A DNA stretch of 28,423 bases from a virus (lineage: Duplodnaviria > Heunggongvirae > Uroviricota > Caudoviricetes). Position numbers and translations under genes: made by a program. The stretch's first letter is position 1; each line of letters starts with the position of its first letter. The stretch spans positions 1 to 28,423 of the IMG/VR virus record IMGVR_UViG_2537562173_000011. One strand, 5' to 3'. Positions 6,755-8,994 of the stretch are shown here, one piece after another. The notes beneath the pieces are model-generated. The model saw nothing but the letters and a program-made list of their open reading frames with translations, was not told the origin of the DNA and ran no database searches.

Positions 6755-7003
6755 ATGGCAAAGGGTGTGTCAATTTCTCCAACTACGGTAAGAATCCCTG
6801 AATCTTTACGCGAGGCTCTTGCTGTCAGAGCATCAAAAAATGGTCGCTCTGTTAACTCCGAGATCGTCATGATTTTGCAAGCCGCGATTGATGAAGATAG
6901 GTCGCCAAAGTCAGTTGAGTCATTTGCTCAGCAAGAAGCTGATAAATTCAAAGAGGCGCTACTTGAGACGCTAAAGACCATGTATGCTAAGGATGAAAAA
7001 TAA
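6755..7003 (+). CDS. mnt: Mnt-like ribbon-helix-helix maintenance repressor
   Basis: 82 aa from ATG 6755 (SD AAGGTG). ...RIPESLREALAVRASKNGRSVNSEIVMILQAA... resembles P22 Mnt; length and divergent orientation relative to arc match P22. Confidence 0.75.
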   Translation: MAKGVSISPTTVRIPESLREALAVRASKNGRSVNSEIVMILQAAIDEDRSPKSVESFAQQEADKFKEALLETLKTMYAKDEK

Positions 7004-7539
7004 TGCTGCACACAATTCATTTCTTATGCCCTGTTAACACTGCCACTGTTGGGCAACTTCAGAACCACTGTCTCACCGCATTATCTCAAGGCGCAACTGA
7101 ATTAAATATCCATATATCAAGTCAGGGAGGGGAAACTGCTGCTGGCTTTACTGCGTATAACTTTCTTAAGTCACTCCCTGTTACCGTTAGAACTCACAAC
7201 ATAAGCAATGTTGAATCCATAGCTAATATCGTTTTCCTGGCTGGCTCAGAACGTTTCGCAAACCCATTATCAAGATTCCTGTTACATCCTCTATTATGGT
7301 GCTTTGCCTCCCCAGCCGCCGACCATGCCAGATTGAGAGAGTACGGGAAATGCCTCGATAACGATCTTGATCGCTTCGTTGAGACGTTCAATATCGACAT
7401 CGGAACCCATATTAGGTGGGCATCCCTGATAGCAGACTCGACCATTTTGGATGCTAACAAGGCTCTTGAGCATGGCATAATTAATTCCATAAAAACTGCA
7501 AGGCTGGCATCCAATCAGGCAAACTGGTGGGTTGTTTGA
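7003..7539 (+). CDS. ClpP-fold (S14-like) serine protease homolog, 178 aa, translationally coupled to mnt
   Basis: Start ATG overlaps the mnt stop (TAATG). HISSQGGETAAGFTAYNFL...ISNVESIANIVFLAGSERF...SRFLLHPLL aligns by eye to the ClpP core (INSPGGVITAG...GQAASMGAFLLTAG...RVMIHQP), with Ser, His and Asp at the catalytic-triad positions. Confidence 0.6.
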   Translation: MLHTIHFLCPVNTATVGQLQNHCLTALSQGATELNIHISSQGGETAAGFTAYNFLKSLPVTVRTHNISNVESIANIVFLAGSERFANPLSRFLLHPLLWCFASPAADHARLREYGKCLDNDLDRFVETFNIDIGTHIRWASLIADSTILDANKALEHGIINSIKTARLASNQANWWVV

Positions 7540-7566
7540 TGGGTAAATCATGATTACTCCTTATAA

Positions 7567-7589
7567 AAAACCCACCTGACGGTGGGTTT
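7567..7589. terminator. Bidirectional rho-independent terminator between convergent hotspot genes
   Basis: aaaaaa-cccacc-tgac-ggtggg-ttt hairpin flanked by A and T runs, between the stop at 7539 (+) and the stop at 7588 (-). Confidence 0.5.
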
Positions 7590-8004
7590 AGTCAAACATA
7601 GTGTTTCTAAAGTCTCTCGCATACCCTGCTAACACTCTCATTCTATTATGATTGTTAGCAGACATGTGAGCTACAGGATGAAAAAGAGCAATCAATGAAT
7701 GCCTGTTCTCATCAAAAAGATTTTGTGCATAAACGAGAGCGGTATTGGATGTTTTATGCCACTGCAACTTTTGCGGTGTGCTGATATCTGTGCCATTTTT
7801 TATTGGCTCAAATTTATTTTCACCAATTGCTAAATGAAGGTGCATAAGGCCTGCATCTTCAATATCAGGAGGTCGATGATAAGAGGTGTCTCTGCCAAAA
7901 TAGCTGGGCAACGTTCCCGTAGACTTGTAGATGATTTTATCATCTACAAGTGTTTGTTTTAAATCAGGAAACTCAACAAAAACCGGGGAGAAAAAAATAG
8001 TCAA
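7588..8004 (-). CDS. Hypothetical protein (138 aa if the TTG start is used), second gene of a two-gene hotspot operon
   Basis: Open frame with AGGA 5 nt upstream of a TTG at 8004; first in-frame ATG would give about 85 aa. No family recognised. AT-rich. Confidence 0.4.
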   Translation of the reverse strand: MTIFFSPVFVEFPDLKQTLVDDKIIYKSTGTLPSYFGRDTSYHRPPDIEDAGLMHLHLAIGENKFEPIKNGTDISTPQKLQWHKTSNTALVYAQNLFDENRHSLIALFHPVAHMSANNHNRMRVLAGYARDFRNTMFD

Positions 8005-8046
8005 AACTATCCTGATTATATTCCACGGTTACTTGCATGTTTTACC

Positions 8047-8613
8047 TCAGTGGAAGTTACCAGAGTGAAACACACGAGTCCCGTGCTCAGCAAGCGCACG
8101 CAAACCAGCCATATCTACGGAACTATCAAAAACAACCGGAACACATGAGCGTTGTTTAATAAGACTATTCAGGTTGGTTACGGCAGATCTGGCATCAGCA
8201 ACAACGATATAGATATCTCTTGCGATCTCTTTAAAATCAGCAGAAGCTTCTTTGAATACCGATTTCATTGCCCCTTCAAGTCCTCTCAATTGATGCTCTA
8301 TCAATCGAGACTTTTCTGGTTCAATGATAGACAACACATTGTCTACATTCTCATCGGTAGCGTTTGCAAGAACACGATAAGCGTATTTCAGCATTCGAGA
8401 CAATTCTTTAATCGAAGACACCGCCTCATGAAGCTCATCATTAGCCCGTTCACTGCTGAATGAGGATTGATGGTAAGCGTGCTGAACGTTATCAGTAACA
8501 ACCACCTCACAACTGAACGCAGAAGCTTGCTGTAATAGCAAACCTATTGCGACTCCAGCTTTGGCAGCGTTCAAGCTAAACATTTCATCAATCCCATTAG
8601 TCTCATTGCTCAT
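8047..8613 (-). CDS. Hypothetical protein (188 aa), first gene of a two-gene hotspot operon
   Basis: ATG at 8613 preceded by a perfect AAGGAGG Shine-Dalgarno; predicted largely helical; no family recognised. Confidence 0.5.
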   Translation of the reverse strand: MSNETNGIDEMFSLNAAKAGVAIGLLLQQASAFSCEVVVTDNVQHAYHQSSFSSERANDELHEAVSSIKELSRMLKYAYRVLANATDENVDNVLSIIEPEKSRLIEHQLRGLEGAMKSVFKEASADFKEIARDIYIVVADARSAVTNLNSLIKQRSCVPVVFDSSVDMAGLRALAEHGTRVFHSGNFH

Positions 8614-8788
8614 ACAAACCTCCTTCTTATCGGAGATTATCAATAGCTATGCATCCATTGAATACACGCTATGCGCAATAAGTTTACGTCACGTGATATC
8701 ATTATGCAACCACCGTTCTATCACCGACTAACTTTACTCCCACTCCTATACATCATCTGGTATCCTGCGCAAAACTAAGGAGGTTGGT

Positions 8789-8977
8789 GTGAAGAAAAAA
8801 TTTTTAAACGTTGCAAAGTGCGCAATTTTTATATTTTTTATGACCTTTTACGGATTTAGTGCCGGAGAAGGTTTCGATCGTGATGCCAATGCATTCAGTT
8901 TCTTTTGTCTGTCTATAGTGGTCATAATTGTATGGGTGGAATTAAAGCAAACATTGTTTCATGTGCTAGGGAAATAA
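8789..8977 (+). CDS. Small hydrophobic protein (62 aa, two predicted TM segments)
   Basis: GTG start 5 nt after a perfect AAGGAGG; two hydrophobic stretches (CAIFIFFMTFYGF and FSFFCLSIVVIIVWV). Lies where P22 carries sieA. Confidence 0.4.
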   Translation: MKKKFLNVAKCAIFIFFMTFYGFSAGEGFDRDANAFSFFCLSIVVIIVWVELKQTLFHVLGK

Positions 8978-8994
8978 CCATCCATGGCATTTAG

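Follow-up and report, generated by a model that had tools for sequence, protein, structure and literature searches.

Independent cargo units, probably including a YafO-family toxin-antitoxin module, between mnt and gene 16 of a defective P22-like prophage

Introduction

What occupies the interval between the repressor gene mnt and gene 16 of a P22-like prophage, and do the genes found there belong to one system or to several? We considered this question for IMG/VR virus record IMGVR_UViG_2537562173_000011, 28,423 nucleotides of a tailed phage (Caudoviricetes) that were analysed at full length and are called the window here. At positions 7003-8980 a sequence-only reading of this DNA had seen an island of four uncharacterised genes, none resembling a known defence family, and had put them forward as one undescribed system. 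All four open reading frames (ORFs) are present. In our analysis they form three independent cargo units in the slot of a defective prophage of Escherichia coli K1, presumably of the CUS-3 type: a ClpP-like gene coupled to mnt, a two-gene cassette on the opposite strand, and a small gene beside gene 16. The cassette is probably a prophage-borne toxin-antitoxin module. Its toxin is of the YafO family; its second protein, the candidate antitoxin, belongs to an undescribed family that has no Pfam model, and this family of partners to phage-borne YafO toxins is the new element of the locus.

The premise that P22-like phages keep exchangeable cargo in this region holds. The gene sieA lies between genes 16 and 9 of P22-like prophages and is carried by 22 of 66 P22-like phages; its product, of 162-164 residues, is predicted to span the membrane with three domains and carries the motif FxRYPxEAxxFNK (PMC10883804). 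A search of the window in all six frames did not find this motif. A literature search found no published study of the partner/YafO cassette or of prophage ClpP cargo genes.

A YafO-family toxin gene and its upstream partner

Both genes of the cassette lie on the minus strand. The downstream gene (7588-8038) encodes a YafO-family toxin in a disabled copy. Its intact allele specifies 149 residues from an ATG at 8038, and the 138-residue protein that had been read here is an artefact of a frameshift described below. The assignment to YafO rests on Pfam PF13957, which the toxin matches at 75.4 bits against a cut-off of 25 (E value 4.1e-21) and which is also found in all 16 of its relatives; RefSeq already names the gene as YafO family. 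The protein has the RelE/HigB fold, and a fold test placed it in the RelE/ParE superfamily. It is 38% identical to YafO of strain K-12, with FGRD, HxH and other motifs conserved, and on its sequence it is a divergent YafO subfamily. A PDB sequence search with the 149-residue toxin returned no match. Like E. coli YafO, it would most likely be a ribosome-dependent mRNA endonuclease.

The upstream gene (8047-8613, minus strand) encodes the 188-residue partner and ends 8 nucleotides before the toxin ATG. It is preceded by the Shine-Dalgarno sequence AAGGAGG, and GAGG stands ahead of the toxin gene. As the sequence-only reading had proposed, the operon has strong ribosome-binding sites and its own intrinsic terminator, which we place at 7565-7589 on the minus strand with a 9-base-pair GC-rich stem (7568-7589) and a U-tail running to 7565. 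The hairpin folds at -14.9 kcal/mol (z score -3.73; 0 of 200 shuffles as good), and with -17.6 kcal/mol on the plus strand it probably also stops mnt/ClpP-like transcripts arriving from the other side. Consensus scans for promoters and terminators gave counts no higher than in shuffled sequence and missed this clear terminator, probably since stem extension consumed the T-run.

The cassette promoter and leader region, read from the sequence and conserved with sequences L003 and L004, occupies 8614-8788 (minus strand). The candidate promoter consists of a -35 hexamer TTGCAT, a 17-nucleotide spacer holding the short palindromes TGATATCA and TCACGTGA, and a -10 hexamer TAAACT; we infer that it serves the cassette, and the promoter scan had no match there. 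Other lineages of the partner/YafO pair share a leader (L007, 3239-3419; L010; L012; L013, from phage HK639, 3281-3461) from which that of the window lineage differs. In the shared leader a palindrome, TTGCTCAAAAATGAGCAA, lies over a -35-like hexamer, and a GC-rich hairpin with a T-run is found just upstream of the Shine-Dalgarno sequence. These could be an operator and an attenuator.

Pairing of the two genes across phages

The two genes recur together in varied surroundings. In 13 of 13 distinct contexts examined, with near-duplicate contigs counted once, a YafO_toxin gene follows the partner gene by 8-12 nucleotides. These contexts include the window and APEC O1, three more P22-like prophages, a Mu-F/portal_3 phage, the gap between Q and the holin gene of a lambdoid phage, the immI region of a siphovirus, the tail region of a myovirus, a site next to an integrase gene, P. 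aeruginosa phage D14L and one further phage contig. In phage HK639 the pair lies between tail genes and has its own terminator. A distant cassette (L025/L026, 1315-3189) stands directly downstream of a cI-like repressor gene (helix-turn-helix plus Peptidase_S24) on the same strand. This is the position of rexAB in lambda, an analogy by which the cassette may be expressed in the lysogen. Most contexts preserve the junction CAYTGAGGT-n5-ATG/TTG, the pairing is kept at partner identities down to 24%, and the divergence of partner and toxin is correlated (r 0.68). The cassette moves as a pair among the cargo sites of very different phages, the site behind a cI-like repressor among them.

Prophage YafO toxins have been reported as found alone, with no antitoxin entered beside them. 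A survey of P. aeruginosa prophages, D14L included, entered YafO toxins without a partner antitoxin (PMC10449497), and the paper on YafNO of avian pathogenic E. coli (APEC) treats the YafN-YafO pair and says nothing of a prophage or of such a partner. The strict conservation of the partner makes it a testable new family of antitoxins or regulators for a RelE-fold toxin.

The partner itself belongs to phrog_8416, listed in PHROG with function unknown. Sequence searches of Pfam, NCBIfam and PDB gave no significant match to it, a Pfam scan found no domain in 21 of 21 family members, and comparison with YafN gave no similarity (E value 36). The family is small, with 6 clusters among 5.8 billion proteins and 23 representatives at an E value of 0.001 or less among 1.84 billion. 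The partner has the C-terminal motif HGTxVFxSGxFH. The AlphaFold2 model is all-helical (predicted local distance difference test score, pLDDT, 73), with a hydrophobic helix isolated at the N-terminus, then a disordered linker and then a helical bundle, and had no known-fold match.

Decay of the toxin copy

The cassette copy in the window carries three changes relative to APEC O1, all within the toxin gene. The first is an additional T in a homopolymer run (T7 at 7991-7997, against T6 in APEC O1), with which the frame from the ATG at 8038 stops after 21 codons; the longest ORF left is the 138-residue one from a TTG at 8004. Among 55 RefSeq E. coli genomes with the cassette, T7 occurs in none. 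T6 and a normal toxin are kept in 54, and the remaining genome, SF-088, has a shorter run (T5) and a truncated gene call, which makes T5 and T7 two independent frameshift alleles of this run. The second change lies in a 29-nucleotide palindrome inside the gene (7923-7951; inverted-repeat scan, 13 pairs counted), whose loop at 7936-7938 is reverse-complemented relative to APEC O1 (AAA/TTT) while the palindrome is otherwise identical. This looks like a hairpin-mediated template switch, and it replaces the nearly invariant Phe34 by lysine (F34K). The third, at 7701, produces Y113H.

Six mutational events lie between APEC O1 and window positions 1-8793, and these three changes make up half of them although they fall in a gene of 450 nucleotides (binomial p 0.0024). 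Over this region the two prophages do not differ in the partner gene, the ClpP-like gene, mnt, arc or ant, nor in any intergenic DNA, and the partner gene is full-length and free of indels in 55 of 55 E. coli genomes. Decay confined to the toxin, with the partner retained, is what would be expected of a toxin-antitoxin pair. The three derived mutations inactivate the toxin, and the module is probably dead in this prophage.

Two other sources of the T7 allele were considered. Sequencing error may be one, but across the roughly 15 kb in which identity to APEC O1 is 99% or more the extra T is the sole one-nucleotide indel, and we treat the frameshift as real. For programmed frameshifting at the T-run we found no supporting evidence.

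Weighing the toxin-antitoxin reading

In the module that we consider probable, a cassette with its own promoter-like region and terminator would supply a YafO toxin together with an obligate upstream partner, and the translationally coupled protein of about 190 residues would be the neutralising component. Cells that lose the supply of partner, through a superinfecting phage or through loss of the prophage, would then be killed or arrested by the toxin. A defence role is plausible, given the cargo sites that the cassette uses.

Several observations weigh against this account or parts of it. The toxin is not a YafO equivalog, since it scores 79 bits against the 153-bit cut-off of NCBIfam NF007377. 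No DNA-binding or known antitoxin domain is recognisable in the partner by Pfam or fold search, and its N-terminus resembles a Sec signal peptide or a signal/membrane anchor; if the partner is exported, the simple cytoplasmic antitoxin model fails. General prophage decay under relaxed selection could partly account for the toxin mutations. The models of PADLOC-DB 2.0 gave no convincing match to the window proteins, and a single weak one, between a ZorA coiled-coil model and the 188-residue protein (E value 0.004, 14 bits), was discounted. Finally, the ClpP-like gene and the cassette share their location in several E. coli P22-like prophages, and a functional link between them is formally open.

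The alternative that survives best, although we consider it unlikely, follows from the partner N-terminus. The partner would be exported or membrane-anchored and the pair would form a different two-component module, for example one in which the toxin is controlled through export or membrane integrity, or else the YafO-fold protein would be no toxin. From an invariant Met11 the partner reads MFSLNAAK-AGVAIGLLL-QQASA, then FSCE, and this tripartite pattern, in which a basic residue precedes a stretch of 9-13 uncharged hydrophobic residues and positions -3/-1 are small, recurs in about 19 of 21 members. The isolated N-terminal helix, linker and bundle of the AlphaFold2 model and the lack of a DNA-binding domain fit the same picture. 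Yet the IGLL(M/L)QQ motif within that helix is conserved far beyond what is usual for signal peptides, the hydrophobic core is short at 9 residues, and tight translational coupling together with toxin-only mutations fits ordinary neutralisation. A stronger form has the partner as a new kind of regulator for RelE-fold toxins, exported or membrane-tethered, in a cassette that senses membrane damage by a superinfecting phage and aborts the infection; its chances appear slight. A lipoprotein signal was also tried for the partner and rejected, as the residues preceding the conserved cysteine do not fit a lipobox.

An exchangeable slot between mnt and gene 16

The toxin-antitoxin reading of the cassette also draws on what other prophages carry in its place. 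Slot contents vary among otherwise near-identical P22-like prophages. In EC.P3 (L015, 4090-4961) and phiv205-1 (L002, 5193-6059) a Panacea-domain antitoxin gene and, behind it, a gene for a protein of 140-160 residues stand in the position and orientation of the window cassette; the protein of 140-160 residues is weakly NsnC-like in PADLOC (E values 2e-7 and 9e-6). With a Panacea pair in the equivalent place, the slot appears to swap toxin-antitoxin cassettes in which the antitoxin position belongs to the upstream gene. The view of the mnt-to-gene-16 interval as an exchangeable cargo slot is thus supported by these sequence comparisons, and the interval would be a toxin-antitoxin swap site in P22-like phages without sieA.

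The base composition of the interval is less telling. Its G+C content of 41.5% at 7003-8980 is lower than that of gene 16 (47.0%), gene 20 (49.5%) and the other virion genes (50.7%), and the block is AT-richer in that sense, as had been noted. The immI region (43.1%) and the tailspike gene (44.2%) are similarly low, however, so the property is not specific to this block.

The third unit is a gene for a basic protein of 62 residues (8789-8977, plus strand; pI 9.1) that starts with GTG after AAGGAGG and has, as had been proposed, two hydrophobic segments in its hydropathy profile. It matches the unannotated phrog_21338 over 62 of 62 positions (4.2e-45), and unannotated copies 95-98% identical to it are found in UPF_BP1, phiv205-1 and JEP4. 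Identity with APEC O1 ends sharply at 8793, four bases into this ORF, and beyond that point APEC O1 has a different gene 16/20 allele. The 62-residue ORF and the 3' end of gene 16 match JEP4, UPF_BP1 and phiv205-1 at 98-99%. By this comparison 8793 is a sharp recombination breakpoint. In other prophages the same position holds unrelated genes of 107, 109, 140 or 297 residues, each beside its own type of gene 16 and each without a Pfam or PADLOC match. The gene is linked to the gene 16 allele and not to the toxin cassette, and this small membrane protein gene travels with that allele. Since mutations that escape SieA lie in gp16 and gp20, the protein can reasonably be put forward as an exclusion candidate; a role as exclusion factor is speculation on our part.

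The ClpP-like gene and the independence of the three units

The first unit is the gene at 7003-7539 (plus strand), which encodes an N-terminally truncated ClpP paralogue of 178 residues of the PpClpP1 type. The sequence-only reading had it co-transcribed with mnt, and the two genes do overlap: the mnt stop codon and the start codon share one base (TAATG). The protein matches Pfam CLP_protease with an E value of 2.2e-11 (44 bits, cut-off 20) from profile position 37 of 182, and it falls below every NCBIfam cut-off for ClpP and for the ClpP-related head protease. Among solved structures the nearest to it is PpClpP1 of Pseudomonas plecoglossicida (PDB 9UXT), which aligns over residues 3-175 with an E value of 1.6e-35. 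The ORF begins at the first start codon after a stop, at a point that corresponds to residue 4 of the truncated PpClpP1; judged from the alignment, the protein is without the N-terminal axial loop region that docks ClpX/ClpA. Ser72 and His95 are invariant in 32 homologues and, in the alignment, take the places of catalytic residues of 9UXT and of Mycobacterium tuberculosis ClpP1. Ser146 takes the position of the PpClpP1 triad proline and is preceded by Asp145, neither of them conserved among homologues. With a YafO toxin and a ClpP paralogue whose homologue has been solved, two of the four genes fall into known families; only the description of the 188-residue family and of the 62-residue protein, known from an unannotated PHROG, as uncharacterised still stands.

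PpClpP1 forms a homotetradecamer with a 42.7 Å axial pore and a Ser-His-Pro triad, has low peptidase activity and does not bind ClpX, and with canonical ClpP it forms mixed tetradecamers that are more active (PMC12900304). By homology, the prophage protein would form open-pore tetradecamers of low activity that do not dock ClpX by themselves, and it may mix with host ClpP. It appears to be a single-gene cargo unit that is here, given its coupling to mnt, presumably expressed in the lysogen from the mnt transcript. The gene occurs in 128 of 5426 complete E. coli genomes, and an Arc-family (mnt) gene was present at 23 of 25 sampled E. coli matches of its region. Lambda-like PhiR12 phages carry the block ant-arc-mnt-ClpP-like between tail genes L and K. 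Homologues at 54-58% identity are solitary opposite-strand genes at other cargo sites, without mnt, in Klebsiella, Proteus and Chromobacterium prophages. The family that includes PpClpP1 is one of prophage cargo genes with a wide distribution, which puts the biological role of PpClpP1 in a new frame.

Antisense to the ClpP-like gene, an 85-residue ORF (7294-7551, minus strand) lies directly after the terminator of the toxin operon and has a TAAGGAG Shine-Dalgarno sequence; it is unannotated in RefSeq and probably spurious.

How the units are distributed bears on readings that would join them. The ClpP-like gene is found without the toxin pair in PhiR12, EC.P3, E212 and phiv205-1, and in 128 E. 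coli genomes against 55 with the pair; the pair is found without the ClpP-like gene in P22-like, lambdoid, Mu-F-type, myovirus and Pseudomonas phages. Lon or Clp proteases commonly degrade type II antitoxins (PMC7781912), and in E. coli P22-like prophages the ClpP-like gene adjoins two kinds of cassette, YafO-type and Panacea-type. One could therefore picture a three-part circuit in which the truncated ClpP, alone or with host ClpP, degrades the 188-residue partner and sets the trigger of the YafO toxin. We regard this as quite improbable: at least 10 contexts of the cassette have no ClpP-like gene in the vicinity, that gene stands alone in PhiR12 and in the Klebsiella, Proteus and Chromobacterium prophages, and common use of the slot explains their adjacency.

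The original proposal, one new multi-gene defence system of four genes, fares worse still and is very improbable. It can point to the occupied sieA slot and to 49 E. coli genomes in which the four genes are adjacent at 99.8% identity. Those genomes share one near-identical block, however, and do not count as independent; for each unit there are many unrelated phages that have it without the others, the gene beside gene 16 differs even among near-identical prophages, and the units do not travel together. Least credible is a leftover or functional head-maturation protease, since its support (best PHROG match phrog_94 'head maturation protease', 7e-21, with a like annotation in phiv205-1, and a weak match to the NCBIfam head-maturation model NF045542) is met by a score of 49 bits in that model, far under its 120-bit cut-off, by a gene in the immI region on the strand opposite to the virion genes and coupled to mnt, by a bacterial ClpP paralogue as closest solved relative, by solitary opposite-strand homologues far from head genes, and by the assembly of P22-type capsids with a scaffolding protein and no prohead protease.

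The host prophage and its decay

The slot just described belongs to a prophage close to one already in the databases. Over positions 1-8793 the window matches, at 99.8% identity, the P22-like prophage that is integrated at argW in E. coli APEC O1, and the gene order is integrase, a neuO-type acetyltransferase with an array of heptad repeats, a 981-residue tailspike, ant, arc and mnt, a set that we take to be that of phage CUS-3 of E. coli K1. The mnt-type repressor gene (6755-7003, plus strand; 82 residues), included here as context only, encodes a ribbon-helix-helix protein of the Arc type (Pfam Arc, 9.5e-11; RefSeq 'Arc family DNA-binding protein'). The sar antisense RNA of the P22 immI region lies at 6256-6322 on the plus strand (Rfam RF00262; 84 bits, gathering score 43) and confirms the immI layout. 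Between arc and ant, a 57-residue ORF (6318-6491, minus strand) overlaps the arc stop codon and is a hypothetical protein in RefSeq (WP_000620145); P22 is not known to have a gene at this site.

The acetyltransferase ORF (1398-2153, minus strand) contains at its 5' end 15 tandem heptamers GAGTCTT (2044-2148; AAGACTC on the coding strand), and the APEC O1 array has 24 copies more. The copy number of 15 is divisible by three, and the ORF reads without interruption across the array, which we assume to be akin to the phase-variable repeat of neuO in CUS-3-type prophages.

The prophage is defective and decaying. Relative to APEC O1, the portal gene (18439-20306) has lost 331 base pairs at junction 19050/19051, leaving two overlapping ORFs of 249 and 419 residues; with the portal gene split, the prophage would therefore be unable to make virions. 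The start of the homologue of gp10, the packaged-DNA stabilisation protein (14100-15518, minus strand), is also disrupted: its first 96 or so codons are out of frame with several stops, and an ORF of 376 residues is left. With a broken toxin and a defective prophage, this particular window is of smaller practical value.

Comparison with known systems

Several systems already described can be set beside the contents of the slot. P22 SieA uses the same slot, from gene 16 to immI/gene 9, as the window cargo; the window has no SieA-like protein, and its sole membrane candidate is the one of 62 residues. PanA pairs (Panacea, DUF4065/SocA-like) match the window cassette in exact slot, orientation and two-gene layout in EC.P3 and phiv205-1, and phage Emek has a DUF4065 gene in the same region. 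In contrast to those pairs, the window partner does not contain the Panacea domain (PF13274), and its toxin is of another family. The ClpP-like protein resembles PpClpP1 in its full-length match, its point of N-terminal truncation and its conserved catalytic serine and histidine. It differs from it as prophage cargo coupled to mnt, with serine 146 aligned to the triad proline.

For the toxin, sequence identity to the endonuclease toxins RelE, HigB, YoeB and YafQ is 5-14%. Unlike RelE-type toxins, which cut in the A site, the ribosome-dependent endonuclease YafO of E. coli is reported to bind the 50S subunit and to cut mRNA 11-13 nucleotides downstream from the AUG (PMC7781912). The nearest known counterpart of the cassette as a whole is YafN-YafO of the E. 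coli dinB operon, with which it shares a downstream YafO-family protein and a tightly coupled upstream gene. The toxin of the window cassette has about 15 extra N-terminal residues and stays under the equivalog cut-off, and the cassette is phage-borne, lies outside an SOS operon and is frameshifted in this copy. Its partner is unrelated to YafN and lacks a recognisable DNA-binding domain; it is twice as long, helical, and marked by a signal-peptide-like N-terminus.

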